This document shows, piece after piece, positions 2,262-57,273 of a stretch of 64,000 nucleotides of DNA. The stretch is from a virus (taxonomy: Duplodnaviria; Heunggongvirae; Uroviricota; Caudoviricetes). The stretch covers positions 1 to 64,000 of the IMG/VR virus record IMGVR_UViG_3300029516_000004, one strand, 5' to 3'. Within the stretch, counting starts at the first letter, position 1, and the number at the start of each line of letters is the position of its first letter. Both the position numbers and the translations under genes were made by a program. The notes beneath the pieces were generated by a model. It had not been told where the DNA came from. It saw only the letters and a program-made list of their open reading frames with translations, and did no database searches.

Positions 2262-2797
2262 TTAGGATTGAAAGGATGACGCCGGAAACTTCTTATAAAG
2301 CGTGGAAACAGCCACATCATAGATGATTGCAACCTGCTTACGGGGGATGCCCTTCTCCAGCAATCGCCGCATTTGCTGCCATGTTTCTTCTTGGTATTTA
2401 GGTCAACGTCCACCTATACGACCTTCTGCGCGAGCTGCATTAAGTCCAGCGCGTGTACGTTCAACGATAAGCTCACGTTCCATTTCTGCCAGCGCCCCAT
2501 TGGTGTACTGGTGTCGATGGAGTCAGTGAGACTCCGGAAGTTAATGCCTCTGTCACGCAGCTCTTCCACCAGCACAACTAAGTGACACATGCCGCGACCA
2601 AGACGGTCTAACTTCCATACGACCAGGGTATCACCTCTGGAAAGCATACGGAGTACCTTTTTTAATCCAGGGCGCTCAGCCTTTTTGCCGCTCGCCTTGT
2701 CCTCAAAAATTAGCTCACATCCTGCGCTTTCAAGAGCGTGTCGTTGTAAAGCAGTGTTTTGTTCATTTGTTGATACGCGTACATAGCCTTTTAACAT
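2262..2797 (-). pseudogene. cin: Cin/Pin/Gin-family serine DNA invertase, disrupted
   Basis: N-terminus MLKGYVRVSTNEQ...SLTDSIDTSTPMGR matches invertases; frame then shifts (expected RFFFHVMG segment missing, ALAEMERELIVERT continues in another frame) and a TGA sits in GRIGGR*PK before the C-terminal HTH QQMRRLLEKGIPRKQVAIIYDVAVSTLYKKF. Confidence 0.7.
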
Positions 2798-2922
2798 ATT
2801 TTCTGCTCACTATCGTTATTTATAGCAAGCTGCGGATTTTAATTAACAAAAACCTGTGTGTGGACATCACAAAGTGCATACCGTGCCCCAATGATGTTTT
2901 ATTGAAAAGCGGGGGTACTTTA

Positions 2923-3204
2923 ATGTTTGATTTAACAATATTTTTTATAACCATCCTTGGAGGCGTGCATTCGTTTCTGAATGGGATTCGTGAAAAACGT
3001 TACGAAGCGTCATGCAGGCAATTGATGGCCGAGTGTATTGCTGCCGTACTTGCAGGCTTTATAGGCATGTATTTCGCGGAATATAAGGGTATGGATGAAA
3101 GTCTTCAGAATTGCGTGACTATTATTTGCAGCATCAATAACAGGCTCATTCTTGAAAAGTCACAAAGGATTATCGATTCGTACCTCAATAGAAATGCCTC
3201 TTAA
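2923..3204 (+). CDS. Small hydrophobic protein, unknown function
   Basis: ORF with GGGGG RBS-like run upstream; predicted TM segment MFDLTIFFITILGG. Confidence 0.3.
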   Translation: MFDLTIFFITILGGVHSFLNGIREKRYEASCRQLMAECIAAVLAGFIGMYFAEYKGMDESLQNCVTIICSINNRLILEKSQRIIDSYLNRNAS

Positions 3205-3250
3205 GCAACAAATGACCGGTTGAGAAGTTACTTTGCATACCATTACCTCC
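3205..3250 (+). promoter_or_regulatory. Putative Lpa-dependent late promoter upstream of lydA
   Basis: AACAAATGAC ... AAGTTACTTTGCATACCAT resembles elements upstream of lyz, pacA, prt/darB and the 52522 operon. Confidence 0.35.
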
Positions 3251-3271
3251 TGACAACGTAGGAGGGAACTT

Positions 3272-3601
3272 GTGCTTGACACACAGGAATTAGCTCCAGT
3301 TGCTATTGCGTTCCTGCTTTCAGTAATTGGTGGGATAGGCACGTTCCTGATGGATGTCCGAGACGGTCGCCAGTCTGGCAATTTGTTGGGATTGGTTACG
3401 GAGATCTTTGTTGCAGTGACAGCTGGCGCGGTGGCGTACCTATTGGGGCAACACGAGGGCTGGGAGTTATCAATTACGTACTTAATGGTAACGATAGCCA
3501 GCAATAACGGTCATGAGGTGATTTCAGGGATGAAACGAGTGAATATCGATAGCATTCTGAATGTTCTTACAAGTTTGGTGAAAAAGGGAGGCGGGAAATG
3601 A
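3272..3601 (+). CDS. lydA: Holin (LydA-like)
   Basis: GTG start after GGAGGG; 109 aa with two hydrophobic segments; first gene of the dar operon as in P1. Confidence 0.55.
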   Translation: MLDTQELAPVAIAFLLSVIGGIGTFLMDVRDGRQSGNLLGLVTEIFVAVTAGAVAYLLGQHEGWELSITYLMVTIASNNGHEVISGMKRVNIDSILNVLTSLVKKGGGK

Positions 3602-4631: not shown

Positions 4632-6551
4632 ATGGAACAGTTCAATATCAATAAAGGGGTGACGATCAAGCCCGGGCTTGACGTGCTTCCCCCGCCAGTG
4701 ACTGATGATGAATATCGCGCATTAATGGCCGGTGAGGACCGCTATCTGATGACGGAATCCAACACCCTGGAGGAAATCGAGGCTACGTTCTTCTATGACA
4801 CGCCGATCCACTGGTGTGCTACGGATTTACTGGAGGCGATTAGTTCTACTCGTTTGCAGTTACACCGGACCATGCAGGCATTTGTCCGGGCATTGAACCA
4901 GAAGCTGAATGGTACCGGAATCTCTGCGGGGAGTGATAAAACGGGGGATGTGGCCCAGAACGGTGCACGCGCGATCGGCGGTGCTGAAATTGGCCGGGCA
5001 CGTAACGTTAACGGGCTGCCGGTCCTGCCAGCCATTATTCCGCTCAGTGATGGTCAGACTATCAGTATTCTGTTTCATAGCCCGACAGCGGAAAACCGGA
5101 TCACCAATAGTGATACGCTGGTTGCTTTCCAGTTCTTACTGAATAAAAAAGACGTTACTCATACCGTTGCTCCGATGAGTGGACGTGATATGACGCTGGC
5201 GCAGGTCACCATGAAACTTGCCAACCTTGCAGAGAAAAACTCGGCAAAATTCCAGCGTGCGCAGAAGAAGAAAAAAGCCCTGGTTGATGAAATAACCCAA
5301 CTACAGGCTGACAGTGACCAGAAAGAGGATGCCATGAGCGACCTCGCGGATCAGGTGGCAGCGGTAGAAGGGCAGAAGGCAGATCTGGAGCAGAAAATTA
5401 ACGCTGTTGCATCGGAAGCGGATTCTCTTTATGAAGAGAATGAGCGTTTGCAGGGGGAGATTGATCGGCTCAATCGCACTGGTGGGCGCGATACCATTGC
5501 CCCTGCGGGGATGACTGGTGGACACTCTCGCGCGCTGACGGATCGCCTTGCCAGTATCAAAAATCGTATGCATATGGACGGGGAAGCGACGCTCAGTAAT
5601 GGTGCATCAATGAAGCAATTCATTGGGGATGGCGAAGGGTATATCCAGTTAACCGATCCGGATGGCAGCGTATACATGATCAAGGCTAAATCCATACAGG
5701 GTGTGGACATGGCAGATGCGCTCGGCAAGCTGTTTAAAGCCTATAAAGCGGGTAATGTATCGGAATATATGGTCCAACCAGAAGAACATAAACCGGAAAA
5801 CGTCGAACCTGAACCAGCGGAAGATACCGGTAGCTCTTCGCCTGAACCAGAAGTCTCTGTAGGTGCATATCGATATGCCCTGCAAATGCGCCCGGCGGCC
5901 CCTGGCGCAATACCTGAAGGTAACAAAGCAATTCTGCCGCGCCCTGATGAGGGTGACCCGTATTATGAATATGCACGCTACGGCATTGCTACTTACGATA
6001 CCCCGCTTTCTGATCAGCAAATGAGTGCGTACGACCTGAAGTTATTGCCTCGCGAGGATTCTTTCGACTTCCTTGCGAAGACACTTACTAATGGTCCGTT
6101 TGGCAAATATGCACAAAAAGCTCTGGAGCTGGCCACCAGCTCACCAGACGAGTTCCGCGTAATGCTGAAAACTCAGTTTCAAAAAACTTTCCCCAATATT
6201 GCGTTTCCTGGTGGCGCTGGCACCGAGAAAATGGTGCAGAGCATGATCAATGCATTGCAGGCCGAAGTCGGTGAGATTACTCAGCCAGAACCGGCCCCGG
6301 CACAGCCTGATGAAACGGTTAGCGAAGCAGATGCAGAGGCTAATAAAGCCATTGAATATCTCAATAACGTGATGGATATGCAAAGCACTGACATGGCGGA
6401 GATCCGTAACGCCCGGGGCAATGTCCGGGAAGCGATTGCAGCCCTTCAGGCTGCCGGACGTTTTGAGGAAAACGAAGAGCTGGTTAATGGCGCTGCTCGC
6501 CACCTGGCTGATCTGCTGGTAGCAATCCAGAAAGCGGGGGTAGCGGCATGA
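4632..6551 (+). CDS. darA: DarA-like antirestriction capsid protein
   Basis: 639 aa, size and operon position as P1 DarA; AGGA RBS; internal coiled coil. Confidence 0.6.
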   Translation: MEQFNINKGVTIKPGLDVLPPPVTDDEYRALMAGEDRYLMTESNTLEEIEATFFYDTPIHWCATDLLEAISSTRLQLHRTMQAFVRALNQKLNGTGISAGSDKTGDVAQNGARAIGGAEIGRARNVNGLPVLPAIIPLSDGQTISILFHSPTAENRITNSDTLVAFQFLLNKKDVTHTVAPMSGRDMTLAQVTMKLANLAEKNSAKFQRAQKKKKALVDEITQLQADSDQKEDAMSDLADQVAAVEGQKADLEQKINAVASEADSLYEENERLQGEIDRLNRTGGRDTIAPAGMTGGHSRALTDRLASIKNRMHMDGEATLSNGASMKQFIGDGEGYIQLTDPDGSVYMIKAKSIQGVDMADALGKLFKAYKAGNVSEYMVQPEEHKPENVEPEPAEDTGSSSPEPEVSVGAYRYALQMRPAAPGAIPEGNKAILPRPDEGDPYYEYARYGIATYDTPLSDQQMSAYDLKLLPREDSFDFLAKTLTNGPFGKYAQKALELATSSPDEFRVMLKTQFQKTFPNIAFPGGAGTEKMVQSMINALQAEVGEITQPEPAPAQPDETVSEADAEANKAIEYLNNVMDMQSTDMAEIRNARGNVREAIAALQAAGRFEENEELVNGAARHLADLLVAIQKAGVAA

Positions 6552-22600: not shown

Positions 22601-23393
22601 AGCCGAGATCAAGCAGGCAATGGACGCAGCAAGCGCGCGCATCGCAGCAGAACGGGAAGCCAATCTGAATCATGCAGTCGCCGCACTGACTCAATCGTGG
22701 GTAACAGCAATCAGGGAGGCCGCCACCACAGGGAAAATCACACCTGCAATTGCGGATGTCGTAAACGACGGCTCTAAATTTATGGATGCCTATCAAATGG
22801 ATGCGGTGAAGTTGCCATCAGCCTATGGTCAACTCAGCTATCGCATGACCTACAACCTGGTATCAATGTTTTCCGACCTTGCCATCCTCGGGCTGGTGTA
22901 TCTTAACGAGGTTACGCCGGAATTGCTCAGCATGCGCAAGAATCATGTGGAGATATTGCAGAGAATTAACACGGTTCTTGCCGGGCGCACCGATGAAGAG
23001 AAACAGGCCGACGCTGATCGGATAAACCTGGCCCTTGGCAACATCACGGAGGAAGAAATTGCCGCCAGAAACGAGAAACAAGAAGAGTTATCATCAATAC
23101 ATGGTGATGCCACCAGCATAGCTCAGTCTCTTGGTCTGAATTATCGCGTATCCACCGCCGACCTGAAGATGATGTACGCACCAAAATTCGCCGCTGGCGA
23201 GGTATTTGGGCTTCAGGAAGCCTCAGGCATGAAAGGCGTTCTTTTCCGTGCGAAAGACGCAATCAAGGCGAAATTCGGCGCTCGCTGGCTGCCAGCGAAG
23301 GCGAAGAACAGCGATTTCCCGGGTAACTGGTGGATTATCGAGACAAAAAACAACGTGGCGGACGTTCTGGCCGTCATCCAACAATACGCATAA
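16626..23393 (+). CDS. darB: DarB antirestriction protein (N6-adenine methyltransferase fused to SF2 helicase)
   Basis: 2255 aa; methyltransferase motif VGNVPFGG; helicase Walker A GFGTGLGKTT and DEGH box VIADEGHNYRN; length as P1 DarB. Confidence 0.85.
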   Translation: MNKLSMGVFRCSSVSEILKYIRAITSHRAPIKYGVEKVEGKSYDRLRREANQKAIDLLNSLVDGATLTDEQRQILAGYTGEGGIGGSVSEYYTPKPIAEGVWEIMKLYGADVGNTLEPSAGTGVFNETKPVGTVMTATEISSVSGRINQLLHPEDSVQISPFEQLAVSTSNDSFDHVVGNVPFGGRDNTRNIDKPYAEETDMGSYFMLRMLDKIKPGGFMCVIVPPSIVSGSNMKRLRLRLSRKAEFLGAHRLPTGTFDANGTSTVVDVVLMRKHPAEMAEKIPLVDESTLESANVLWPTFISGKWFEKDGRRFVHGTQEKGFQGRIEVRADGQIDNQDLKAKLIHRFESRIDWSLLDMAEPSPTADVVDEGEMRLINGVWQKYAGGRWIEADAGKELKIDAASYGADSWEALQRNLTTTEGRLGMTFTQMANVRDKYTTSISDDMVQLVDWINSQPEKYRERLYRGAMIGRMLIEYQDMKAAGHSAEQIEQQRLSLVSRLQAEIDRFGNPGRGPIAKLSGSGARAWFAFRGAIKLDGTISDELTGKLVTHDSSASYDSTSYQDTLRYLYSDLTRDPIQLDDFRLAFTGELPASDEELLNLLASTPGIAVSPYGGIVPFARATSGDINEIVAPKQEFLATLPDGPVKNNVLNQLAAIEEKRIKTPAENIRFKLNSRWFDRSVILEFLQENGYPDLRYVQSVQLEGDEMVSDTYHGGDGLFVGHRYGVVQRKDKETGEIRYEWDRKSGENATGFPAQLEKYLNGARIGGKDSATANGYREQMALLEDQFNKWIKTHDRYDELVAKYNDVFNSNIPYEHSGDPLGLKGLSGKRQPFDYQNSEVRRLSEDGRGILGFGTGLGKTTTALALEAFNYENGRSTRTAYVVPKSVLENWYYEAKEFLSEEAFSNYLFVGLDVLMDGDQIRQVPVLDENGKPVLGTDGTPVMHDALKLADEATITARMNAIPHSNYRAVVFTKEQYARIPLRDDTVDEHAQDMLYDFVAAGRVASAMDSDSHRKEAARRRVLSEYSDTGTEKAEKYPYFEDMGFDSVIADEGHNYRNSYKNGREASQLAYLPTSAVAQSARDMAIKNAYLMKKNGGRGPVLLTATPVVNTPIDAYNMLSHVLPKEYWQKMGIYSPDDFVKFFGKTRLETVQKISGEVEEKMALVGFENLDALRGIFHRWTTLKTAEDVKDTVEIPELDEHQQDAPLTEEQLAAYEELRQQAEAAAKANNGVTTSVNEDGVIEHEKARPIFSIIRDMDRVCTDMDLYYRRITYRFLPEYADAVQQLADSLPKQATSEDDDSDDSITQQSQYSLIDKGEFIQLQVPEAFEQEVNKRLARFGIDEQTVTHPVTPKYAKLIATLKEFFPEGKQIIFTDEKTQHQKLKRIICNALNLEPSKVGILNAQTVAEAGKTGKKLKAVKPPKELPDEPTDAQIAKYNEQMALYDAYIAQQNEMSLGGLEKIAADFQEGRTPIIICNKKAEVGINLHRGTTDIHHLTLPWTPASIAQRNGRGARVGSNRASVRVHYYCGKGSFDEYRLKTLKRKAGWISDILRSDKSEMENADANDMIEMQMYTAKDDGERLAMMQVQMDKAKAAQRARQKEQATIDLQNYIKAQHAAGEDVEVLTAELERSKAELEKTTAEVAKFKQAVMAKAADNADWKARWGSVHHTDRTLLAQYRASLKSAIQRKANISQAISRYEKLLNRTQKAATDIKRLRPLVEDAINKGILDVDPDLVNHANEFLVIGDRSWRVGQYYDCAGDIVRIKSLDFDSQRADVEIIFTFKGTKSGNWDVKTLDKQVDVTPDEDAVMQKISGGVSIAGINDIISCDDFYRFQQRGMIKITDSYGVQTTESGYSIDFVGTYTDPLKHAVYPDRRDGALKSSIAKWVLGMMSEGNNRQVRLAEVFLTELFGSNYGDVIASYGDTLSPEAIQEKIADAIARMPEKTSQGATRNGDSELEVTNAIFGTHEFRASDYEITTAQFGTIGIYSNKAEIKQAMDAASARIAAEREANLNHAVAALTQSWVTAIREAATTGKITPAIADVVNDGSKFMDAYQMDAVKLPSAYGQLSYRMTYNLVSMFSDLAILGLVYLNEVTPELLSMRKNHVEILQRINTVLAGRTDEEKQADADRINLALGNITEEEIAARNEKQEELSSIHGDATSIAQSLGLNYRVSTADLKMMYAPKFAAGEVFGLQEASGMKGVLFRAKDAIKAKFGARWLPAKAKNSDFPGNWWIIETKNNVADVLAVIQQYA

Positions 23394-23426
23394 CAGGAGC
23401 GCCCGGTTCGCCGGGCGTCGCATAAT

Positions 23427-23867
23427 ATGGCCACACTATCTGATACAATAAAACCGAATAAAACATATCTTGAGGCGGTACTCCGTACAGCGTTGTTAGG
23501 AAAGACAGAAGACGAATACGTTGATTTCTTCCTGTCAGGGCTACGCGGGCGATTAATGAAAAATCCCCGCCTGTACCGCAGCTATGGTCCATACTGGCCG
23601 GAAATTAAAAAATTATTACTGGAGCGCGGTTATGGTAATTTCGGTCGTCTCGTTGACCGTGACGTTCGCAAAATTTACCGTTATGACCGCCCGGCGCTAA
23701 CACTCATAGCCGCGACGCTCTACAGCCAGGAGCGTTTTGATAATGGTCAGATATACTCAGCCTGGCATTTACTTCCAGTGCCTGAAGAAGTTGACGACCA
23801 GGACTATGAGTTTGAGTCTTACGATTTGGAAGTTGAAGCCTTGGCACAGTCTGGAGAGAAAACTTGA
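23427..23867 (+). CDS. Ulx-like protein
   Basis: 146 aa ORF between darB and the lxc candidate. Confidence 0.4.
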   Translation: MATLSDTIKPNKTYLEAVLRTALLGKTEDEYVDFFLSGLRGRLMKNPRLYRSYGPYWPEIKKLLLERGYGNFGRLVDRDVRKIYRYDRPALTLIAATLYSQERFDNGQIYSAWHLLPVPEEVDDQDYEFESYDLEVEALAQSGEKT

Positions 23868-24112
23868 AAAAGCGATACTACACAGTAAAGCATGGGACGC
23901 TACGAGCATTACAAGAGTTTGCTGACAAGCATAACGTTGAGGTGCGCAGGGAAGGGGGAAGTAAAGCTCTGCGCATGTACCGTCCTGACGGAAAATGGCG
24001 GACGGTCGTCGATTTCAAAACAAACAGCGTTCCCCAGGGCGTCCGCGACCGGGCATTCGAAGAATGGGAGCAGATCATCATAGATAATGCTCTGCTACTA
24101 AATGCTGACTGA
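23864..24112 (+). CDS. lxc: Lxc/Bof-like C1 co-repressor
   Basis: 82 aa basic protein; size and position. Confidence 0.5.
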   Translation: MKKRYYTVKHGTLRALQEFADKHNVEVRREGGSKALRMYRPDGKWRTVVDFKTNSVPQGVRDRAFEEWEQIIIDNALLLNAD

Positions 24113-24130
24113 GTTTAATATTACAATATT

Positions 24131-24163
24131 ATCTGGGAGATAAATGCATCTTATTTCCCAGAT
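24131..24163. terminator. Hairpin at the convergent lxc / AraC-gene junction
   Basis: atctgggagataa-atgcatc-ttatttcccagat. Confidence 0.35.
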
Positions 24164-24885
24164 GATAACTGATGTTTTGCATATTCACATGGTGTACAAT
24201 TATAATACTGCCTAAATAGGTACACAAAGTACGATATACTACTAAAACCACAACTTTCTGATACTTGTTTGAGGGGGCAGTTTTGCTTTAGTAATTTAAT
24301 AGCAAAAGCCATCCGTGTATCAAGTAATAACTTACTGAAGGAGGTGTTTTCTAATAATAGTTTTTTCTTTATTAAACTCTCACTCATGTATAGATAATCA
24401 GTTAAATCTCTTAGTTTCCAATGTTTAGATACATCTGAAAGAAATATGCTGCGTACTTTCCCTGAGAAAGTAGGCATGCCAGACGTAAGAAAAGCTCTAA
24501 GGTTGTCAACATCACTAAAAATTGAAAGTAATGAAAAAGTTAAAGCATCCTTAAAATCAGGATGTATATGATTCTGGTCACTTATATTATCGATCATCCT
24601 GATTAATAAATCAGGATAAGCAAAAGACTTTTTTAGCAAATGTGGGCATTTATCTAGAAGTTGCTTCCCTTGGTGATTGTGACAAGATAAATAGTTTCTT
24701 ACAGCACTATCATTAAGTTCGAATTCGATATATTTATCTGAATAGGTTTGTAAGAATTCGCGTTCAGAATGTTTAAGCAACAGCACATCACCATAATTTA
24801 ATATTAAGAAATCCTTAAGAAATTGAAAATTTATCGGTTTCTTTATAAGGATGAAGTAACAGACTCCTGACATAGCTACCACCAT
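24151..24885 (-). CDS. AraC/XylS-family transcriptional regulator
   Basis: C-terminal double HTH (LRDLTDYLYMSESLIKKKLL...VSESCGFSSISYFVYLFRQYYNCTPCEY); markedly AT-rich. Confidence 0.8.
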   Translation of the reverse strand: MVVAMSGVCYFILIKKPINFQFLKDFLILNYGDVLLLKHSEREFLQTYSDKYIEFELNDSAVRNYLSCHNHQGKQLLDKCPHLLKKSFAYPDLLIRMIDNISDQNHIHPDFKDALTFSLLSIFSDVDNLRAFLTSGMPTFSGKVRSIFLSDVSKHWKLRDLTDYLYMSESLIKKKLLLENTSFSKLLLDTRMAFAIKLLKQNCPLKQVSESCGFSSISYFVYLFRQYYNCTPCEYAKHQLSSGK

Positions 24886-25107
24886 TCTAAAGAGGCTTTG
24901 AACAAGAATAGAGATACAGCAGCACTGAAATCAAGAAGTTGTGCAAAAAATAAAAATATTGATTTGTGTCACAGTTGCTGCTTTTTATTATTGAATTTTT
25001 ATCAATTTCACTACAGATAAATAAATTGACATAGTGTGTAACCCCTGTAAATATAAAGGGCACTTTATCTGCTAAAGCCAACCAATTTAAAAATAGAGGG
25101 TGGGAGC

Positions 25108-25797
25108 ATGGAAGTTATCTACATAGTAGAACCAATCATTTCCACAAGCACTAACAAGTTGATAGCAGTGGAAGTGTTGAGCAGATTTTATTCCAACGAG
25201 GGGGCTATTCTTTCTACTCAGAAAGTATTAGGTATGTTTACAAGCAAGATGAAGATTAACTTGCTAAAATCTCAACTTAACACAATAATCAAATATAAGT
25301 ATTTTTTTGAATGCCATAATATATTATGCTCTATCAATGTAGATTATGATACCTGTTTATATATATATGGCAATAAACAAATTCAAGAACTACTAATAAA
25401 CAATAAATTTATAGCGATTGAGATATCAGAAAACTATCCTGATTTTAGCGATGAGGATTACATCATATCCTTTCTACTGACTTTGACAGATAATGTTTGG
25501 CTTGATGATTTTGGAAGTGGTAACGCCACCATGAAAGCATTAATTAAAAATAAATATCATGCAATAAAACTTGATAAGTCATTTTTTCAAGAGCATATGA
25601 TTAAGCCTCATTTTGATGTCATTATTAGCAATTTAAAAAAGTTATGTCCGAATATCATCGCTGAAGGCGTCGAAAACATTGATTGTCATAAGTTATCAAA
25701 AGGGATAGGGCTATGGGGCGCTCAGGGATATTTTTTCCCATCAATTCCGCTGACGGAGATTGAGTCCATAGATAGTAAGTGGCTATCAGATTTATGA
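25108..25797 (+). CDS. Stand-alone EAL-domain protein (putative c-di-GMP phosphodiesterase)
   Basis: EVL motif (AVEVLSRF), DDFGSG, KLDK, EGVE and GAQGYFF motifs in order; GAGGGTGGG RBS; AT-rich. Confidence 0.8.
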   Translation: MEVIYIVEPIISTSTNKLIAVEVLSRFYSNEGAILSTQKVLGMFTSKMKINLLKSQLNTIIKYKYFFECHNILCSINVDYDTCLYIYGNKQIQELLINNKFIAIEISENYPDFSDEDYIISFLLTLTDNVWLDDFGSGNATMKALIKNKYHAIKLDKSFFQEHMIKPHFDVIISNLKKLCPNIIAEGVENIDCHKLSKGIGLWGAQGYFFPSIPLTEIESIDSKWLSDL

Positions 25798-25850
25798 GAT
25801 GCAGAGAGTTAGGATATTGATATGAACATCTAAGCACCTCATTACTGTGC

Positions 25851-26495
25851 TTAAAAGATGTTATCCTTACCTGTTAATTTACCTTGAGGAACTTTAGCGA
25901 GCTCCATACGATAAAATGCTTTTATCATATTTACAAATGGCTCATATGGTGAATATTCGTTGTCTTGTTTAGTAACGGTGTCTGTCATTGTCCTGATGTA
26001 GTCTGCGCTTACCACGTTGTTGTATTCTGTTGCGAAGCAGCATAACAACGTCAGAACATGCTCTGTCGTTATTTCGCTCCAGTTGATGTTGAAAAACTCA
26101 TCGCCTTTTTTATCGTGTTCGGAATCGAAGATGCTTTGGTGGAGGATGTATTTGCCGGATTCCTTGCGCGGTAACTTGATCGCTTTCTGGCGTTCCAACT
26201 CCTTGTAAATCTGCATTGCTTCAATTAGTACCGGCCTGCCGTTCATGAAGGGATCGCGCAACCTTACACGCTGGCCAACTCGACCGGTAATAAAGCTGTT
26301 TTCCTCTTCCACCAGCACGATAAAACCCTTTTCCTCTTTTTCTCGCAATTCGCGCAGCAGCTGGAGTTCCATATCGCGGCGGCGTTCAGGGTAGCTGGTC
26401 CGATCAGCCATTATCAGCTCGTTATTGATCCATGCAGCAGTCATTGACGCCGGTTTGCCGACGCTCATCGAAACAACGCATATTTTCTTATCCAT
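25851..26495 (-). CDS. Hypothetical protein (Mat position)
   Basis: 214 aa from ATG 26495 after GTAGGGGG; no recognised motif. Confidence 0.5.
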   Translation of the reverse strand: MDKKICVVSMSVGKPASMTAAWINNELIMADRTSYPERRRDMELQLLRELREKEEKGFIVLVEEENSFITGRVGQRVRLRDPFMNGRPVLIEAMQIYKELERQKAIKLPRKESGKYILHQSIFDSEHDKKGDEFFNINWSEITTEHVLTLLCCFATEYNNVVSADYIRTMTDTVTKQDNEYSPYEPFVNMIKAFYRMELAKVPQGKLTGKDNIF

Positions 26496-26684
26496 AGCGC
26501 CCCCTACAAAAAAGAAAAGCCACCAGCGGCGGCTTAGCAATACAACAGAAGGTAGCGCCCGGTACTCAGACTGTGCCGTCCATGGAATATTTGAAAAGGG
26601 ATCCATCCGTACCGGGCGTGTGATGATTCTGACTCAAGTCACTTGTCAGTTGTCAATCATTTAAGATTAAAAATAATATATTTA

Positions 26685-27074
26685 TTAGTGCATGATGTTT
26701 GCCATTTCATAGGCGTCAGCCAGCAACTCCATCTCTGACTTGTTCAGCAAGGTGAATTCTTTCTTGCTTCCAACCACACCATCTGCATGAACAGGGACCA
26801 GCCAGGGGTATTTTTCTCTTACTTCAGCCGGTGCTGCATGCTGGTGGTACCATCTACAAAGTGGCAATTGCTTTTTGTGACAACCCGGCGCGGTACGACC
26901 GGCGATATGGTGCAGAGACACCTCATTAGATATTACTCCAGGCATATAGCAGGCAATGCAGGGGAGAGCGCCAAGAGCATTGGCGATGCGCCGTTCCTCC
27001 GTCGTTGGTGGGCTCCGTTTGGGAAACGGAAGATATTGTACGTTAAGATGATTTTTTGTACTGGCTGACATCAA
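26685..27074 (-). CDS. HNH-family nuclease-like protein (possible Ref homologue)
   Basis: Cys/His pattern CIAC...SLHHIAG...CHKKQLPLC. Confidence 0.45.
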   Translation of the reverse strand: MMSASTKNHLNVQYLPFPKRSPPTTEERRIANALGALPCIACYMPGVISNEVSLHHIAGRTAPGCHKKQLPLCRWYHQHAAPAEVREKYPWLVPVHADGVVGSKKEFTLLNKSEMELLADAYEMANIMH

Positions 27075-27289
27075 TAAGCCTTAAAGGACGATACTTCCTT
27101 TCAATGCGTCAGATCTGTACCCGCTTTCAGCAGACATATTCCTGAAACCTGAGAGCCAGAAGAATGGCCTGATATCATCCAAATATGGCATTATTTCAGT
27201 GGCAGGCAGGCCTGATTTAATCATAATTATCACATTAGGCCATCATGATATGGCTCTGATGGTTATTAACCAATACAGGACTTGCTAAA

Positions 27290-28066
27290 ATGAAGATCAT
27301 CCAGGTACGTAACGCCACACAACTCATTTCTTACGCTGGTAAAAAATTTCTTGTCGATCCGATGCTTGCGAAAAAAGAAGCCTATCCGGGATTCGAAGGA
27401 ACGGCCCGGTCAGATATCCGCATCCCGATGACTGAGCTGCCTTTTGACCTTGATGTACTGCTGGATGTGGATGCCATTATTGTCACCCACACACACCCTG
27501 ACCACTGGGATGAAGCGGCTGTTGCGCACATCCCGAAAGATAAACTGATTTATGTTCAGAATGAACATGATGAAAAGATCCTGCGTTCCCAGGGCTTCAG
27601 CAACCTTGTTATTCTGTCTGACAAAAGCACATTTGGCGAAATTTCACTTATTAAAACCGTTTGTCAGCATGGTTCGGACGAAGCCTATGCTAACCCGCAA
27701 CTCGCAGCAATCCTTGGGGATGCCTGTGGGGTGGTCTTCCAGCATCCGTCCGAAAAAACGCTCTATCTGGTCGGGGATACCATCTGGATCAAGGCTGTAG
27801 AGGATAATTTACGTCGGTTCAATCCTGGCGTCGTTATTATGAATACGGGCTGGGCGCATGTTCTCGGATTCGGCCCCATTATTTTCGGCAGGGAAGATGT
27901 CCTGAAAGCCCATCGTATCGTACCAGAGGCACTGATTGTGGCAACGCACATGGAGGCCGTAAACCACTGTCTGCTGACCCGTCAGGAACTGCTGGAATAT
28001 GCCCGCGATAACCAGATCCAGGCGTCAGTTGCCGTTCCTGCTGATGGTGAATCAGTTACGATTTAA
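27290..28066 (+). CDS. MBL-fold metallo-hydrolase
   Basis: THTHPDHW metal-binding motif and downstream His/Asp residues. Confidence 0.8.
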   Translation: MKIIQVRNATQLISYAGKKFLVDPMLAKKEAYPGFEGTARSDIRIPMTELPFDLDVLLDVDAIIVTHTHPDHWDEAAVAHIPKDKLIYVQNEHDEKILRSQGFSNLVILSDKSTFGEISLIKTVCQHGSDEAYANPQLAAILGDACGVVFQHPSEKTLYLVGDTIWIKAVEDNLRRFNPGVVIMNTGWAHVLGFGPIIFGREDVLKAHRIVPEALIVATHMEAVNHCLLTRQELLEYARDNQIQASVAVPADGESVTI

Positions 28067-28081
28067 CCCGGAGGCCATGGC

Positions 28082-29071
28082 ATGTCCACCATCACTGTCG
28101 CTATAGTGATCACCGAAGGGTTCAGTACATTTCATGTCTCCGTTCCACTAATCCTGTTCGGGGAGATACTGGAAGGGAAGGCTCTCTTCAGCCGCCGGGT
28201 ATGTGCGGAAGAGCCCGGGCTTATCTGGTCTGCTGAAGGTACGGCGATGAGGGCAGAATACGGGCTTGATGCACTGGCAGAGGCCGATATCGTTATTATT
28301 CCTTTCTGGAAACACATCCATGAAAGGCCTTCTGAAACTCTGCTCAGTGCCCTGGTTGCAGCCTGGAAAAATGGAGCTCAGGTGGTGGGCCTGTGCCTGG
28401 GGAGTTTTGTTCTGGCTTACACCGGTCTGCTGGATGGTAAACGGGCGGCCACGCACTGGGAGGCTGAACGGGATTTCCAGATGCTTTTCCCGGCGGTTCA
28501 TCTGGACGTGAACGTGCTTTATGTTGAGGACGAGCGGATTATCACCTCAGCCGGTACAGCCGCAGCACTGGACTGTTGTCTCCATGTGATCCGGCAACGC
28601 CTGGGCAGATATACGGCTAATCAAATAGCCCGCCGGATGGTTGCTCCTCCTTACCGGGAAGGCGGACAGGCACAGTACCGGCAACTGCTTATTCCCAAAA
28701 GTACGTCCGATAACCGCATAAACCAGCTGCTGGAATACCTGTCCGCAAATCTGGGATTACCACATGATATTGACACTCTGGCCCATTTAGCCTCCATGAG
28801 CCGAAGAACGCTTACACGCCATTTTCATTCGGCCACAGGAATGACGGTCTGGGAGTGGATCACCACAGAGCGTCTCCGGCGGAGTCAGGAACTGCTGGAA
28901 AGTACAGATATTGCAGTGGAGCGGGTTGCCGAACTGGCAGGCTTTCAGTCCACCATTACTTTCCGGCAGATATTCCGGCAGCGGATGGGAGTCAGTCCCA
29001 GTGAATGGCGAAAAACATTTAACGGAACGCCGGAAGGCAATATTCCGGCAGGTAAAGAAACTGAAAAATGA
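28082..29071 (+). CDS. GlxA-family regulator (DJ-1/PfpI domain + AraC HTH)
   Basis: N-terminal DJ-1-like fold with GLCLGSF; C-terminal AraC HTH (MSRRTLTRHF...FQSTITFRQIFRQRMGVSPSEWRK). Confidence 0.85.
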   Translation: MSTITVAIVITEGFSTFHVSVPLILFGEILEGKALFSRRVCAEEPGLIWSAEGTAMRAEYGLDALAEADIVIIPFWKHIHERPSETLLSALVAAWKNGAQVVGLCLGSFVLAYTGLLDGKRAATHWEAERDFQMLFPAVHLDVNVLYVEDERIITSAGTAAALDCCLHVIRQRLGRYTANQIARRMVAPPYREGGQAQYRQLLIPKSTSDNRINQLLEYLSANLGLPHDIDTLAHLASMSRRTLTRHFHSATGMTVWEWITTERLRRSQELLESTDIAVERVAELAGFQSTITFRQIFRQRMGVSPSEWRKTFNGTPEGNIPAGKETEK

Positions 29072-29079
29072 GGTGCAAT

Positions 29080-29481
29080 ATGTCTGTTGAAGAAAATATC
29101 AAAACGGTTAAAAAGTTTTATCGTCTGATTGAAGAAAATAAATATGATGAGGTGAAAAACCTCTGCCATCCGGATTTTAAATTCTATTCTCAGGTGGATA
29201 CACCGCTGAACAGTGAGCAGTTTATCGTACAGGAAAAAGGCCATATGGATGCTTTTCCGGGATTTACAATGCGTATCCACGAAATCTTTGCCAGAGACGA
29301 TAAAGTCGCCTGCTATCTTATCTTTGAAGGCGTGCAGACCCGTGAATTCCTTGGGCATCCTGCCAGCGGCAGGAAAGTGCGCTTTTCTCTGATGTTTATG
29401 ATCACTCTGAAAGACGGGAAATATATAGAAAAACGGGCTCATTATAATACAGCGGATATCCTCCGGCAGTTGTCAGCCTGA
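29080..29481 (+). CDS. SnoaL-like / ester cyclase family protein
   Basis: 133 aa, NTF2-like pattern (VKKFYRLIEEN...DFKFYSQ...); translationally coupled to upstream regulator. Confidence 0.6.
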   Translation: MSVEENIKTVKKFYRLIEENKYDEVKNLCHPDFKFYSQVDTPLNSEQFIVQEKGHMDAFPGFTMRIHEIFARDDKVACYLIFEGVQTREFLGHPASGRKVRFSLMFMITLKDGKYIEKRAHYNTADILRQLSA

Positions 29482-29734
29482 GTGGCAACACATTGCCCAG
29501 TCTGTATTATTACAGGCAGGGCTGCGTATCTGACAGGAGCAATGAGCTTAGCCTGGAAAGGTAATCCATTAACGCCAGGGCTACTTTTTATTCCGATTCA
29601 GGCTCTCTATAAAGGGCTTGAATGCGGCATATCTGTGAAGGACTGTACCCTGTCGCATCTACCGTTTCATGGATACTTAGTTTCTTGACCTGCCGGTAGT
29701 ACAGGACTTTCTGATGCCGTTCCTGATCGGCCTG

Positions 29735-30228
29735 TTATCCCCGGTATTTACCCAGCGTATGAGCCCGTTCAATTCCCTGTTGTTGCCGTTGGCGACGGCT
29801 CAGCCAGTCCTTATGCGACATCGCGGCCATCAGGTCGATAAGCATGTTATTGATGGCGGTTATCACGGCGCGGGTGATTGGGTCAGCCTGCGAAGGGTCT
29901 TTATCTGACAGCGCCTGCCATGAGGTGGATACATCCAGGCGACAATCCGCAGTTCGTGTTGTTCTATCTGCTTTTTCAGCGTAATCCAGTCACTGTTACT
30001 CAGACGGGTCAGGCGGTCAATTTGCTCGACCAGTAAAATATCATTGCGGTGGCTGTCCATCAGTAAGCGTCCCAGTTCCGGGCGGTCGAGTTTTGTACCG
30101 CTTATGTTCTCCCGGTAGTAACTGGCTATTTTATGTCCCCGCTCCTGAACAAACTGCCCCAGCATCTCTTTTGCCCGATCGGCAAACTGATCTTCCGTTG
30201 ATGCCCTTAAATAAGCTCTGATGAACAT
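29735..30228 (-). pseudogene. Serine recombinase (resolvase family), frameshifted and lacking C-terminal HTH
   Basis: N-terminus MFIRAYLRASTEDQ...LLVEQIDRLTRL in one frame; continuation LDVSTSWQALS...GKYRG* in the +1 frame (one base missing in gtcgcctgg run near 29935) and stops before the DNA-binding domain. Confidence 0.6.
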
Positions 30229-30510
30229 TTTTCCACCACGTTATCGCTTTTAGGTTATTGCATTTAATCTATCGCAATGGCAGAGTCCTGTCCGGGAACC
30301 TCGCGGGCTTCTCTGGAAAACATGCAGGCATGGTACATCCGAGATGAAACCTACTCTGCTGCCCTGGCGGAACTGGTTAAGTAGGTAATGGCCACGTCTT
30401 CGTAGTTGACTAACGCCACGGCTCAATTATAACAATCAATTAGAGCAATGTTATATTGTTTATCTTCAGTCACATTTTTTCACTTTAGTATCTATGTGCT
30501 ATACTCCTTT

Positions 30511-30938: not shown

Positions 30939-31970
30939 CTAATCGCCATCTTCCAGCAGGCGCACCATTGCCCCTGTTTCACTATCCAGGTTACGGATAT
31001 AGTTCATGACAATATTTACGTTGGTCCAGCCACCAGCTTGCATGATCTCCGGTATTGAAACTCCGGCACGGGCCATATCTCGCGCGGCTCCGACACGGGC
31101 ACTGTGTCCAGACCAGGCCAGGTACCTCTGGCCAGAGTCATCCTTAGCCCCGTAAATCAATCGGTGAGTTGCTTCAAAAATCCCTTCCAGGGCGCGAGTT
31201 GATAGCTGGCTGGTGGCAGATGGCGCGGCAACACCATTTTTTCTGACACGGCAAAACAAGAAGTTATTCGGATCATCAGCCACACCAGAGACAGAAATCC
31301 ATCGCTCAACCAGTTTAGTTACCCCCAGACTAAGTGCCTTCTCTACACCAGCGGTGCTAACCAGCGTTTTCGTTCTGCCAATATGGATTAACATTCTCCC
31401 ACCGTCAGTACGTGAGATATCTTTAACTCTGATCCTAGAAATTTCGGCTATACGTAACAGGGTGTTATAAGCAATCCCCAGAAATGCCAGATTACGTATA
31501 TCCTGGCAGCGATCGCTATTTTCCATGAGTGAACGAACCTGGTCGAAATCAGTGCGTTCGAACGCCAGCGCCTGTTTTGCACGCTCACCGGCATCAACGT
31601 TTTCTTTTCGGATCCGTCGCATGACCAGTGAAACAGCATTGCTGTCACTTGGTCGTGGCAGCCCGGACCGACGATGAAGCATATTTAGCTGGCCCAAATG
31701 TTGCTGGATAGTTTTCACTGCCAGACCGCGCGCCTGAAGATATAGAAGATAATCGCGAACATCTTCAGGTTCTGCGGGAAACCACTTCCGGTTATTCAAC
31801 TTGCACCATGCCGCCCACGACCGGCAAACGGACAGAAGCATTTTCCAGGTATGCTCAGAAAACGCCTGGCGATCCCTGAACATGTCCATCAGGTTCTTGC
31901 GAACCTCATCACTCGTTGCATCGACCGGTAATGCAGGCAAATTTTGGTGTACGGTCAGTAAATTAGACAT
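30939..31970 (-). CDS. cre: Cre tyrosine site-specific recombinase
   Basis: 343 aa; sequence read as Cre throughout (MSNLLTVHQNLPALPVDATSDEVRKNLMDMFRDRQAFSEHTWKMLLSVCRSWAAWCKLNNRKWFPAEP...), loxP about 420 bp upstream. Confidence 0.98.
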   Translation of the reverse strand: MSNLLTVHQNLPALPVDATSDEVRKNLMDMFRDRQAFSEHTWKMLLSVCRSWAAWCKLNNRKWFPAEPEDVRDYLLYLQARGLAVKTIQQHLGQLNMLHRRSGLPRPSDSNAVSLVMRRIRKENVDAGERAKQALAFERTDFDQVRSLMENSDRCQDIRNLAFLGIAYNTLLRIAEISRIRVKDISRTDGGRMLIHIGRTKTLVSTAGVEKALSLGVTKLVERWISVSGVADDPNNFLFCRVRKNGVAAPSATSQLSTRALEGIFEATHRLIYGAKDDSGQRYLAWSGHSARVGAARDMARAGVSIPEIMQAGGWTNVNIVMNYIRNLDSETGAMVRLLEDGD

Positions 31971-34000: not shown

Positions 34001-35485
34001 TTATTCATTAAGCCATGCCAGAGCTTCATCAACCTGCGCTTCGTCTTCGACGCTAAGCACTTCATCTTGGGGAACATAGTTCGCCAACATAGCGAAACAA
34101 TATGTATCCCAATGGTCCGGTGAGTGCAGGTTGAGTTTTTTCTTCATATCTTCCTTTGACATCACCTTCCATTGACCTGCGGAATTTATCCCTACCGGTA
34201 TCTTTGATGCTTCCTCTATAGTCGCAGCCCCCTTATCAAGCCGCATACGCCCTGATTTTACAGCTTCTGCCGCCTGAATATTCGCGAAAGCGCGCATATC
34301 GAAATAAAGGCTTTTATCTTCACGGCTGTGCATCTTTTTACCCCAGCGGATACGCTGGACGGTAATACCATAGCGTTCGTACATCAGATCAGCCGTCGAT
34401 TTCCCCAAGCCATCGCCATCAATAGCTATGGTTATGTTCGGGAACCGTTCTGGGTTACATTCTGCGAAAATCTTGGCGGCTAACTGCGTTTCTGTAACGT
34501 CTGTGTATTCCAGCATACGATAGTTGATTACACGGCGTTTATTTCGCTGGCCGGACACCATCATGATATTAATAACGGACTTATCTCGTCCTGCGCCACC
34601 AGCAACGTCAACACATGCAACCCAGCCCCATCCTTTGGCAATCTTGACCTTTCGCCGCGTCGCCCGCTCAACCTCATCACGACCAAGAAGAAAGCCATCT
34701 TGAGATTTGGGAAATTCACCACGTACTTTAATCATATACATGGGGTTATCACGACCGCCATACTCCGCAAGTTTTGCTCGTATAAATTTTGCATCTACAA
34801 GCGGAGATTCTTCACTATTCAGTATTATCGCAGTAAACAATCCATCAGGATTTCCCGGGCGAATAGCTAGTCTGTGGTGTGAATCGTAGAAATAGCCTGA
34901 AGGTCGCGTAGGCTGGGAAAGAAGCAGAATACGGTTATCCTTACCGGTCAGCGCACCTGTTATCACACTGAATGCTTTATCACTCACACCCGACGCTTCG
35001 TCGATGATATACAAGAGATGATCGGCGTGTTCACCAGCCAACGCCTCCTCATTTCCGGGGCGACAGGACTTTATCAATATTGTCCAAACACCCTTGCCAG
35101 TCACCTCAAAAAAAGACGTTTCTGTAAGAATGAAATACTTCGACAACCACGGGAATCTGCTAACAGCAGTAGCCCAATTGCTCTTTATGTATTTGAAAAT
35201 ACCATCAAGGACTTGCTGTCTTTTGTTAGCGACCAGAATAACGCGAGCGCCGGGGAAAAACATGATGAAGAGTATTGCAATGATACTCGTCATATCCGAC
35301 TTACCAGTACCATGGCCGGAGGTCACACTTGTCCAACTGCCGTCCTGCTGCGTGGACTCAATGATCTCATCCTGCTGCCAGGTTGGTGTCTTCCCAAACA
35401 ACACATCAGCGGCCGCAATCCAGTCATAACGATATAGCGCCACCAGCTCGCGCCAACGTGGGTCCGTTACGCAACTTCTGGCCAT
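34001..35485 (-). CDS. pacB: Terminase large subunit PacB
   Basis: 494 aa; Walker [10 protein letters not shown], Walker [12 protein letters not shown]-terminal nuclease-like region; overlaps pacA stop. Confidence 0.85.
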
Positions 35486-52908: not shown

Positions 52909-54126
52909 ATGCCAACTGAATATGCTCGCGACAACCTTGGTCGCTATCAGACTGATGGATTAAGTGCAAAAGACTTTAACAAGGTCTTCGATCTTATCCG
53001 TAAACAGCAGCGTCAGAATCGGCGAAACGCGCGACGTACACTCACCCCAAGGATTATGGGGATGCGTAACCGCGAACTTGAGGCATTCCTCAGCCTTGGG
53101 AAAAAGAAAGATGGCACCTACTTTACGCCCGAAGATATACGCAGCTTCGACACCTCAAGGCAGGCTCATAAAACAAAATTCAAGAGCACGGTACCCGGCA
53201 TTACCTATGCTCAGCTGGTGGCGCAGTCCACCAGCATTGATATAAAACGCGCTAACAACAAGGTTTCTGATGGCACAGGGATCAAAGCCGCGACATTCCT
53301 CGGGCTAAAACATAACCTTGCATTGATATCTGTTAATGCCTCGGATGAGTCTGTCCACCAGCATCACCGTGTCAGAATTCGATTTGAGGAATGGGATAAA
53401 GCCGTTGAGGAAATTGCTGAAGACGGTGCGAAAAAAGCCCGAATCGCTGCCGATCTCTGCAAGGGCCGGGTATCTTTCGACTGTGATTGTGGACGCCATC
53501 AATACTGGTATCGTTATATGGCCACGGCTGGTAACTATGCTGTCGCGCCGCCAAAAGAGTATGCATTCCCCAAGATCCGCAACCCTGATCTGACTGGTGT
53601 AGCCTGCAAACATGTATTGCACGCTATGACGCGTTTTCAGTCTCCCACATGGCACAAGGCCATCATTATTGCCCTGGAAAAAGCAGCTGAACAGGTGGCC
53701 TTCGGCGATGACAAGCGGAAGACAACAACCTATTTCAAAGGCGAACTGGCTAAATCACTCGCGCGCAACCGGACAACAACGACGGATCAGGCTAAAGCGG
53801 CGCGTGAGTATGAGTTATATCTGAAATCTCAGGATGCATTAGGCAAAAAACTACGCGCCAAAGATAGCGCCACGGACAACGTTCGCCGGTTGTTAAAAAA
53901 AGCTCGCACCACGGCAAACAGGAAGAATGCCGAACTAAAAGCATCGCGGGTGAGGGAAGCCCAAGCTCGCGCTGAAGCCGACGCTCTCAAAAAAGCCCTG
54001 CAAACGCAGGCGAACAACCTCATAAAGTTTTTCATGAGTCAGGGAATGGACAAGGCCGCTGCCACCGCGCAGGCGCGAAGCATTCTTGAGACACAAATTA
54101 ACGAAGCCCGTAAACGGAAAGGATAA
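52909..54126 (+). CDS. Virion structural/morphogenesis protein
   Basis: 405 aa, basic coiled-coil C-terminus; operon context. Confidence 0.55.
   Translation: MPTEYARDNLGRYQTDGLSAKDFNKVFDLIRKQQRQNRRNARRTLTPRIMGMRNRELEAFLSLGKKKDGTYFTPEDIRSFDTSRQAHKTKFKSTVPGITYAQLVAQSTSIDIKRANNKVSDGTGIKAATFLGLKHNLALISVNASDESVHQHHRVRIRFEEWDKAVEEIAEDGAKKARIAADLCKGRVSFDCDCGRHQYWYRYMATAGNYAVAPPKEYAFPKIRNPDLTGVACKHVLHAMTRFQSPTWHKAIIIALEKAAEQVAFGDDKRKTTTYFKGELAKSLARNRTTTTDQAKAAREYELYLKSQDALGKKLRAKDSATDNVRRLLKKARTTANRKNAELKASRVREAQARAEADALKKALQTQANNLIKFFMSQGMDKAAATAQARSILETQINEARKRKG

Positions 54127-57273
<3,147 letters not shown>

Follow-up and report, generated by a model that had tools for sequence, protein, structure and literature searches.

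At the position where phage P1 carries ref and mat, this locus presents two small genes, and the question is whether they are indeed ref and mat and what their products might still do. The window, i.e. the whole stretch of 64,000 nt that was analysed, represents a P1-like phage-plasmid read in reverse, with the ref-mat segment on the cre strand. For this segment the first-pass annotation described two co-oriented ORFs, a Cys/His-rich, HNH-like protein of 129 aa and a 214-aa protein without recognisable motif, and guessed from their position that they are Ref and Mat, but it remained doubtful due to the length of P1 Ref, given as 186 aa. Both ORFs are indeed located on the minus strand:

26685..27074, minus strand: ref remnant ORF, 129 aa with TTG as start or 128 aa with the ATG at 27071
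25851..26495, minus strand: mat, 214 aa plus stop codon, starting with MDKKIC, phrog_1837
30939..31970, minus strand: cre, on the same strand as the ref remnant and mat

The region from 25986 to 27016 shows a DNA identity of 96.6% to P1 nt 2306-3336, which comprise ref and mat, and both proteins align with their P1 counterparts, so that the guess from position is supported at the DNA as well as at the protein level. The characterisation of the short ORF as Cys/His-rich and HNH-like proved accurate, with matches to RecA_dep_nuc (Pfam PF16786, E 4e-48, 162.3 bits at a cut-off of 26.9, model positions 1-102 of 103) and to the structure of P1 Ref, a RecA-dependent HNH endonuclease (PDB 3PLW, E 1.8e-69). 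For the 214-aa protein nothing was found in Pfam, NCBIfam, and PADLOC, and to this extent a recognisable motif is absent, but PHROG 1837 is matched over nearly its entire length (E 2.7e-104, residues 1-213 to profile positions 1-211 of 212). Due to these family matches, a chance reading frame is excluded for either ORF. The length of 186 aa given for P1 Ref is correct, and the discrepancy to 129 aa is resolved, since the gene is a 5'-truncated ref remnant and not another HNH protein. Judged from these alignments, the locus is the ref-mat segment of phage P1 in its usual place, with ref as a decaying pseudogene and mat intact. This arrangement is ordinary, except that a predicted fold and the gene neighbourhood give hints on the function of the poorly understood Mat. 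Overall, the best explanation, which we consider very probable, is a P1-like ref-mat segment composed of a dead ref remnant and an intact mat encoding a 214-aa protein with a predicted RNase H-like fold.

P1 Mat is the "maturation control" or particle maturation protein, formerly designated gene 1 and named decades ago. The AlphaFold2 model of Mat, based on a 115-sequence alignment, reaches a pLDDT of 91.8 and a pTM of 0.79. In a Foldseek search with this model, the high-probability PDB matches and nearly all top BFVD matches are nuclease domains of terminases, including those of G20c, P22, SPP1, T4, D6E, and E217, with a probability of 1.00, E-values down to 4e-5 and TM scores of 0.45-0.55 (e.g., G20c 5M1F with E 1.5e-4). 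The predicted fold of Mat is thus of the RNase H type, with the large-terminase nuclease domain as its nearest structural neighbour, and the likeness is at the fold level only. A Pfam scan of all 115 family members gave scattered noise and no significant terminase match, and PDB sequence searches with Mat alone and with the family profile gave no real match. A derivation of Mat as a duplicate of PacB, the terminase of P1 itself, received no support (hhalign probability 0.13). Across the family, Mat stands alone, with a length of about 213 aa and no fused N-terminal packaging ATPase.

Three positions of the model bear on catalysis. The end of strand 1, which appears to be the position of the first catalytic Asp and is occupied by Ser9, carries Ser, Thr, or Cys in 82% of the 115 members, with a register taken from secondary structure and not from residue-level superposition. 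After strand 4, 92-94% of the family show Asp or Glu at positions 63-64; after strand 5, position 138 carries Asp in 60% and Asn in 29% of the members. Of the catalytic acids of terminases, only the acidic pair after strand 4 appears to be conserved in the Mat family.

The genomic surroundings of mat were compared by means of homologous loci collected by tblastn against annotated plasmids and phages. The order mat, gp26-like gene, gp25-like gene occurs in 10 out of 10 other lineages, in which mat heads a baseplate and tail-stability operon, and in 8 out of 10 mat and the next gene overlap by 1-11 nt. From gene order and overlap, mat is regarded as the gene that opens the baseplate operon, with translational coupling, in the other lineages examined. 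In P1 itself, mat lies apart from genes 26 and 25, and in the window the corresponding genes are likewise located elsewhere:

52522-54858: genes 26, 25, and 7, within the window, apart from mat

A role of Mat deduced from synteny is guilt by association. In second-hand literature, Mat is listed as essential on the basis of amber mutants, for which lethality is reported; upon CRISPRi knockdown of mat, plating fell no further than to 0.28 (PMC10695390). A described mechanism for Mat was not found in the accessible literature.

Considering fold and neighbourhood together, Mat would be a non-catalytic assembly factor derived from a terminase nuclease and needed for baseplate or tail maturation, a reading to which we assign roughly even chances. 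An active terminase or RuvC-type nuclease in packaging, which might resolve branches or help with the headful cut and in this sense would "mature" particles, is unlikely. It would agree with the exclusive appearance of terminase nuclease domains among the best structural matches, with the strong retention of the acidic pair 63-64 and of Asp or Asn at position 138 (about 89% together), and with the fact that mat adjoins ref, i.e. another DNA enzyme, in several lineages. These points are opposed by the Ser, Thr, or Cys that predominates at the apparent first catalytic Asp position and by the considerable share of Asn at position 138. Furthermore, P1 already possesses a full-length terminase in PacB (phrog_2, residues 32-473), and the genes that regularly accompany mat belong to baseplate and tail and not to packaging. 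Mat is probably not a DNA-cutting enzyme.

The fate of ref is linked to an insertion upstream of the remnant, whose limits are given by the breaks of homology to P1:

about 27017..30385, no strand assigned: inserted cargo of 3.37 kb
27081..27233, minus strand: ORF of 50 aa within the insert, sharing the frame of the ref remnant, with one TAA and two codons in between
27290-28066, plus strand: MBL-fold hydrolase of the insert (Pfam, PGAP)
28082-29071, plus strand: GlxA-type DJ-1/AraC regulator of the insert (Pfam, PGAP)
29068-29481, plus strand: SnoaL-like cyclase of the insert (Pfam, PGAP)
~29590-30228, minus strand: resolvase pseudogene of the insert (Pfam, PGAP)
30390-30395, minus strand: surviving -35 box of P1ref, the -10 box being deleted (P1 annotation nt 2017-2044)
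30427..30455, minus strand: P2ref, an orphaned ref promoter aligned to P1 annotation nt 1957-1985
30434-30450, minus strand: Oref, a C1 operator within P2ref (P1 annotation)

Positions of the ref promoters were transferred from P1 by window = 32412 - P1. The insertion, which is bounded on one side by the degenerate resolvase gene, replaced P1 nt ~2028-2305 (about 280 bp), and the -10 box of P1ref, the ribosome site and the start codon of ref as well as ref codons 1-77 were lost with it. P2ref now points into the insert and is separated from the ref remnant by 3.4 kb with oppositely oriented genes in between. A Serratia plasmid (H155) contains a part of the cargo cassette without flanking P1 sequence. 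A reading of the locus as a defence system was rejected, as neither Mat nor the ref remnant nor any adjacent cargo gene had a PADLOC hit.

The remnant consists of 18 foreign codons (MSASTKNHLNVQYLPFPK), followed by Ref residues 78-186 and the stop codon. Compared to the same residues of P1 Ref, four substitutions and one inserted residue were observed in the protein alignment. The basic, disordered N-terminal segment of about 76 residues is missing, homology begins at residue 78, and only two Lys are present among the 18 replacement residues. In the HNH/zinc core, C96, C99, H112, H113, H123, C130, H134, and H153 are kept, and H133 is lost. PGAP annotates the locus as a pseudogene ("Ref family protein, incomplete, missing N-terminus"). 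The ORF as such is still open, with a weak AAGG upstream of the ATG; a scan of the sequence revealed no promoter-like site on the minus strand upstream of the remnant, and the 50-aa ORF had no family match in Pfam, PHROG, and NCBIfam.

The N-terminal segment of Ref (~76 residues) mediates DNA binding, and every in-vivo effect depends on it (PMC4330346, PMC4713147). DNA binding of ΔN74 and ΔN76 Ref is undetectable (PMC4330346), and RefΔN76 elicits neither SOS induction nor filamentation nor killing, even when over-expressed (PMC4713147). Together with codons 1-77, the acquisition of the cargo removed this DNA-binding segment, by which the HNH domain is guided to RecA filaments; a 109-residue HNH core is left over behind 18 accidental codons, without a promoter of its own and gathering changes at invariant residues.

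Such changes are apparent from a comparison with 102 full-length Refs. H133, which is His in all 102, is replaced by Tyr, H102 (His in 94 out of 102) by Pro and G160 (Gly in 99 out of 102) by Ser. H102P is common to all five truncated copies compared, and H133Y and G160S are private to the window. Among the sister copies, L006 carries H112N and a frameshift, P0072-P0075 contain other indels, frameshifts, or early stops, and the core of L003-L005 differs from P1 by H102P and A82T only. Due to the nearly unchanged core of L003-L005, the decay of ref is recent and shallow. The ref/insert junction was found in 51 PLSDB plasmids, and the identical junction is present in 74 out of 5,426 complete E. 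coli genomes (about 1.4%).

From truncation, decay, and the published behaviour of RefΔN76, we infer that the ref copy of the window does nothing. That a short Ref of 128-129 aa still works, with its HNH core produced by read-through or by coupling to the 50-aa ORF, nicking RecA-bound DNA or serving a new role, and being kept because full-length Ref is toxic, is very unlikely. The ORF is intact, in frame with the 50-aa ORF and only 9 nt downstream of it, and the spread of the junction over 74 complete genomes would fit a retained function. Moreover, φW39 Ref ΔN74, a close equivalent of the truncation in the window, regains nuclease activity in vitro at a 10-fold higher concentration, and the published Zn ligands of Ref, H134 and H153, are retained. 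Against this, the private and shared substitutions affect highly conserved residues, with H133Y at a position that is His throughout the full-length Refs, and the H112N, the frameshifts, and the early stops of the sister copies follow the pattern of neutral decay. An upstream promoter-like site is lacking, PGAP calls a pseudogene, and the over-expressed RefΔN76 is inert in vivo. Hitch-hiking with a plasmid lineage that was successful accounts for how far the junction has spread.

Following the reading as a dead remnant, the proper annotation of the 129-aa "HNH protein" is that of a ref pseudogene. Loss of Ref removes a host-toxic function that reduces lysogenisation about 40-fold and renders lysogens more sensitive to ciprofloxacin (PMC4713147). 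The P1-like plasmid lineage without ref, which occurs in ~1.4% of complete E. coli genomes, may live in its host in a less harmful and more plasmid-like way.

The control region of mat overlaps the end of the ref remnant, and its elements were placed according to the P1 annotation by window = 29322 - P1 in case of the promoters:

26677..26694, minus strand: Omat, the C1 repressor operator of mat (P1 annotation nt 2628-2645), identical in sequence and overlapping the ref stop codon
26626..26656, minus strand: Pmat, a sigma-70 promoter with the -35 box at 26651-26656 and the -10 box at 26626-26631 (P1 nt 2666-2696)
26636-26644, minus strand: -22 box of LPmat, a late promoter overlapping Pmat (P1 annotation)
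26496..26625, minus strand: 5' leader of mat, a part of which is taken in the P1 record NC_005856 as the opening 37 codons of a 250-aa Mat (ATG at 26606)
26508..26535, minus strand: intrinsic-terminator-like hairpin, AAGCCGCC-GCT-GGTGGCTT followed by TTCTTTTTT, with its end 12 nt upstream of the mat ATG

In the alignment, the -35 and -10 boxes of Pmat and the -22 box of LPmat are all identical to P1. Given this identity, mat should be expressed as in P1, i.e. from a C1-repressed sigma-70 promoter that overlaps an Lpa-type late promoter.

The start annotated for the 250-aa Mat of P1 is probably too long, and the real start is presumably situated 37 codons further in, resulting in 214 aa. That Mat is instead the 250-251-aa protein of the P1 reference genome is hardly credible: the frame is open up to the ATG at 26606 (251 aa), and this start is taken in NC_005856 and some PGAP records, but most family members have 213 aa and every aligned homolog begins with MDKKIC, the N-terminal extension is not conserved as protein (wholly different in P0045 and absent from most homologs), its region forms the terminator-like hairpin and the U-run from which the "FFF" codons originate, a Shine-Dalgarno sequence is lacking before 26606 whereas AGGGGG is located 5 nt before the inner ATG, and PHROG 1837 is only 212 positions long. 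Mat should thus be recorded as a 214-aa protein.

The hairpin at 26508..26535 is the only terminator-like site in the region 25700-27400, and RNA folding of the mat leader gave a 10-bp long-range stem together with this hairpin. Each of the 10 other lineages examined likewise has a GC-rich hairpin followed by a U-run ahead of mat; in Pantoea the U-run is weaker, and the site was missed by the scan. No Rfam match was obtained for 25700-27400 at E ≤ 1. RNAalifold predicted no pairs for a MAFFT alignment of mat leaders from nine lineages, which is out of register. The alignment of five D6-type leaders yielded a three-way junction and a terminator, with compensatory changes in 8 out of 28 pairs, and a covariance model derived from these leaders finds those of Xenorhabdus (E 0.008) and Photobacterium (E 0.03); the P1-type, Aeromonas, Serratia, and Citrobacter leaders were not found with it. 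Since the model misses the P1-type leader, homology of P1 and D6-type leaders is not claimed, and the layout alone is shared.

Taking fold, neighbourhood, and leader together, it is tempting to speculate that Mat is a catalytically degenerate, stand-alone terminase nuclease domain, which was recruited by P1/D6-type phage-plasmids as lead gene of the baseplate/tail-stability operon and whose expression is controlled by an intrinsic terminator close to the promoter, perhaps also by Shine-Dalgarno sequestration, within a structured leader RNA described in no database. This composite proposal is tentative and in its entirety rather doubtful. If true, "maturation control" would mean a terminase-derived assembly factor under attenuation control. 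The terminase nuclease likeness of the Mat model and the baseplate genes as partners provide a concrete and testable hypothesis, and of the two genes mat offers the more useful leads.

In comparison with known systems, the ref remnant resembles P1 Ref by an identity of 96% over residues 78-186, by the presence of the fold-defining Cys and His including the Zn ligands, and by the same genomic position between c8/cre and mat with Omat overlapping the stop codon as in P1. It differs by the absence of the basic DNA-binding N-terminus of 76-77 residues, of the ribosome site, and of a direct promoter linkage, and by H102P, H133Y, and G160S. Effectively, it represents a natural equivalent of the RefΔN76 laboratory mutant. 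With P1 mat, the gene of the window shares the operator and the dual promoter, and the first ~160 residues of the proteins are identical save one substitution; the C-terminal ~45 residues diverge and match those of the P1 isolate OP279344, which lacks res/mod and carries AraC and EAL genes downstream. Compared to large terminases (G20c 5M1F, P22 4DKW, SPP1 2WC9, T4 gp17), the predicted fold and strand order of Mat match, including the acidic pair that follows strand 4. Mat differs from these enzymes as a stand-alone protein of 214 aa without ATPase domain and without detectable sequence similarity, with Ser, Thr, or Cys apparently in place of the first catalytic Asp and with three extra C-terminal helices, and its gene is encoded together with baseplate genes and not with packaging genes.

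Both co-oriented genes that the first-pass annotation had described on the cre strand were recovered on the minus strand:
25851..26495, minus strand: mat ORF, 214 aa from MDKKIC, with the frame open up to an ATG at 26606 (251 aa)
26685..27074, minus strand: ref remnant ORF, 129 aa from TTG or 128 aa from ATG at 27071
30939..31970, minus strand: cre, on the same strand as both ORFs

To judge from homology, both ORFs are real and not chance reading frames. The short ORF matches the whole Pfam model RecA_dep_nuc (E 4e-48), the PHROG "Ref-like RecA filament endonuclease" and the P1 Ref crystal structure 3PLW (E 1.8e-69). The 214-aa protein matches PHROG 1837 from end to end (E 2.7e-104), and searches of Pfam, NCBIfam and PADLOC gave no match. 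P1 nt 2306-3336, comprising ref and mat, and window 25986-27016 are 96.6% identical. OP279344, a P1 isolate without res/mod, is 98.4% identical to window 23300-27016, and the gene order darB-ulx-lxc-AraC-EAL-mat-ref is common to both. Due to the P1 homology and the shared gene order, the identity as Ref and Mat, previously guessed from position, is correct; by sequence comparison, the window is a P1-like phage-plasmid in reverse orientation.

The first ~160 residues of Mat equal those of P1 Mat except for E68D, and the last ~45 residues diverge, from the point where DNA homology breaks off (25986). Omat, the Pmat -35 box, the LPmat -22 box and the shared -10 box are all identical to P1. In the P1 reference annotation, Mat has 250 aa and starts at the upstream ATG. 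Homologs in the databases mostly have 213 aa and the MDKKIC start is present in every aligned homolog; only one extended homolog was among those compared, with an extension unrelated in sequence. Furthermore, AGGGGG precedes the inner ATG and nothing comparable precedes the outer one. Almost certainly, the 214-aa form is the real mat product.

Situated between Pmat/LPmat and the MDKKIC codon are a long-range stem of 10 bp and a hairpin with a U-run that resembles an intrinsic terminator and ends 12 nt before the start codon. Leaders were located as follows:
26508-26625, minus strand: mat leader structure of the window, hairpin and U-run between the mat promoters and the start codon
L007 4866-4974, L010 5832-5940, L009 ~5948-5975, and L011, L012, L014-L016: mat leaders of other lineages

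A GC-rich hairpin with a U-run occurs upstream of mat in all 10 other lineages examined. Its spacing to the mat start is mostly 8-24 nt, and two lineages have 65-70 nt; the scan missed the Pantoea site, whose U-run is weaker. In D6 the hairpin is still present and the gene upstream of mat is divergent, thus the hairpin cannot be the terminator of that gene. For the D6-type leaders, RNAalifold predicted a three-way junction and a terminator, 8 of the 28 pairs showing compensatory changes. A covariance model of these leaders did not detect the P1-type leader, and an Rfam search of the mat leader region gave no match. The predicted mat leaders share a layout; an RNA family is not established. The hairpin could exert attenuation control of mat or give rise to a short leader RNA.

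Outside P1 proper (L007-L016, mat loci of other lineages), mat is the first gene of a baseplate and tail-stability operon (mat, gp26-like, gp25-like). In ten lineages, i.e., phage D6, plasmids of Photobacterium, Aeromonas, Xenorhabdus, Leclercia, Serratia, Citrobacter, Pantoea and Klebsiella, and a D6-like E. coli element, the gene directly downstream of the Mat homolog encodes a gp26-like baseplate wedge subunit (phrog_1269), and mostly the one after that encodes a gp25-like tail protein (phrog_1722). The mat gene overlaps its downstream neighbour by 1-11 nt in 8 out of 10 lineages, and ref lies directly upstream of mat in three. The corresponding loci of the window are:
52522-54858, plus strand: genes 26, 25 and 7, about 26 kb from mat and on the opposite strand; likewise apart in P1
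part of 24151-25797, minus strand: low-GC AraC-family regulator, in the res/mod slot of P1
part of 24151-25797, plus strand: EAL-domain protein, 229 aa, YdiV-like by the annotation of one phage record

Due to this distance, P1-type elements appear to have parted mat from the rest of the operon. The stretch behind mat has turned into a cargo slot, occupied by res/mod in P1, by the AraC and EAL genes in the window and by a SIR2 gene in the relative L005. In further relatives the slot holds SIR2 or RelA/SpoT genes. The final ~45 mat codons (25851-25986) vary along with the AraC/EAL cassette, so the recombination break lies within the mat 3' end.

A profile search among 1.84 billion representative proteins found 157 Mat family members, of which the full-length ones mostly comprise about 185-240 aa. 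The AlphaFold2 model was confident, with pLDDT 91.8 and pTM 0.79 with a 115-member alignment (77.1 with an 11-sequence alignment), and Foldseek gave the same answer for both models. In PDB, large-terminase nuclease domains make up the high-probability matches (G20c, P74-26, P22, SPP1, T4, D6E, E217, HCMV UL89), besides a few other RNase H-like proteins with weaker E-values; in a viral library nearly all top matches are large terminases (probabilities 1.00, E-values to 4e-5, TM-scores 0.45-0.55). The modelled likeness is at fold level only: no family member matched a Pfam terminase, the family profile matched no PDB sequence, and no profile similarity was found to PacB, P1's own terminase:
34001-35485, minus strand: PacB, with PHROG 2 "terminase large subunit" covering residues 32-473

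By PHROG 2, PacB is itself a full-length terminase; it had no Pfam terminase match, with sub-threshold AAA_30 only, and is by its sequence a very divergent one.

In a register inferred from secondary structure, the end of Mat strand 1 appears to correspond to the first catalytic Asp of terminases. Since this residue is Ser/Thr/Cys in 82% of the family, conservation argues against a canonical terminase active site. Behind strand 4, 92-94% of members retain the acidic pair 63-64; at position 138, behind strand 5, 60% have Asp and 29% Asn. The main rival, an active packaging nuclease, agrees with the fold and is unlikely. At about even chances, Mat would be a non-catalytic, terminase-nuclease-like assembly factor in baseplate or tail maturation. 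The fold, the baseplate synteny and the promoter-proximal terminator, all predicted, were not found described in the searched literature and raise the interest of the locus slightly.

As to ref, the first-pass annotation doubted its identity because of the short HNH protein. The protein does align with P1 Ref, and its length reflects the absence of N-terminal residues 1-77: in protein and DNA alignments homology begins at Ref residue 78 (P1 nt ~2306, window ~27016), and ORF codons 1-18 are unrelated to P1 Ref. P1 homology resumes at window ~30385, corresponding to P1 nt ~2027. Between these points, cargo replaces P1 nt ~2028-2305; lost with that stretch are the P1ref -10 box and, of ref itself, the ribosome site, start codon and first 77 codons:
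27017-30385, 3.37 kb: cargo insert with an MBL-fold hydrolase, a GlxA-type DJ-1/AraC regulator, a SnoaL-like cyclase and a frameshifted resolvase
30427-30455, minus strand: P2ref and C1 operator Oref, surviving, orphaned and directed into the insert
within 30390-30455, minus strand: P1ref -35 box, surviving and orphaned

The arrangement is not an assembly artefact, since it is carried by 51 PLSDB plasmids (at least 80% query coverage), its junction occurs in 74 of 5,426 complete E. coli genomes (any P1-type ref in about 700), and the NCBI pipeline labels the locus "Ref family protein; incomplete; missing N-terminus". PADLOC found no match in the insert. A Serratia plasmid carries cargo part 27104-29264 at 93.7% identity and has no P1 sequence flanking it. 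C1-controlled transcription from the orphaned ref promoter is now aimed at the resolvase pseudogene, antisense to the cargo genes. A 50-aa ORF (27081-27233, minus strand), without match in family searches, lies in the frame of the ref remnant, separated by only TAA and two codons; this may be fortuitous or a vestige of an earlier fusion.

Conserved residues are altered in the window copy: Tyr replaces H133 (invariant among 102 full-length homologs), Pro replaces H102 (conserved in 94 of the 102) and Ser replaces G160 (conserved in 99 of the 102). H102P is common to all five truncated copies compared, and H133Y and G160S were seen in the window copy alone. The relative L006 has H112N and a frameshift, and P0072-P0075 show other indels, frameshifts and early stops. 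No promoter-like site was found upstream of the remnant on the minus strand. Independent damaging changes in separate copies indicate relaxed selection, and thus the remnant is very probably a pseudogene. Residual function, for which the still open ORF and three only lightly damaged sister copies speak, is highly improbable.

In kind, the finding is already known: a ref pseudogene, flagged by automated annotation, beside an ordinary mat. The N-terminal 76 residues of Ref are its DNA-binding segment; DNA binding of ΔN74 and ΔN76 was not detectable, and the nuclease activity of ΔN74, much reduced, returned only when the protein concentration was raised 10-fold (PMC4330346). Over-expressed RefΔN76 caused no SOS induction, filamentation or killing (PMC4713147). 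The natural truncation point observed here coincides almost exactly with that of the RefΔN76 laboratory construct.
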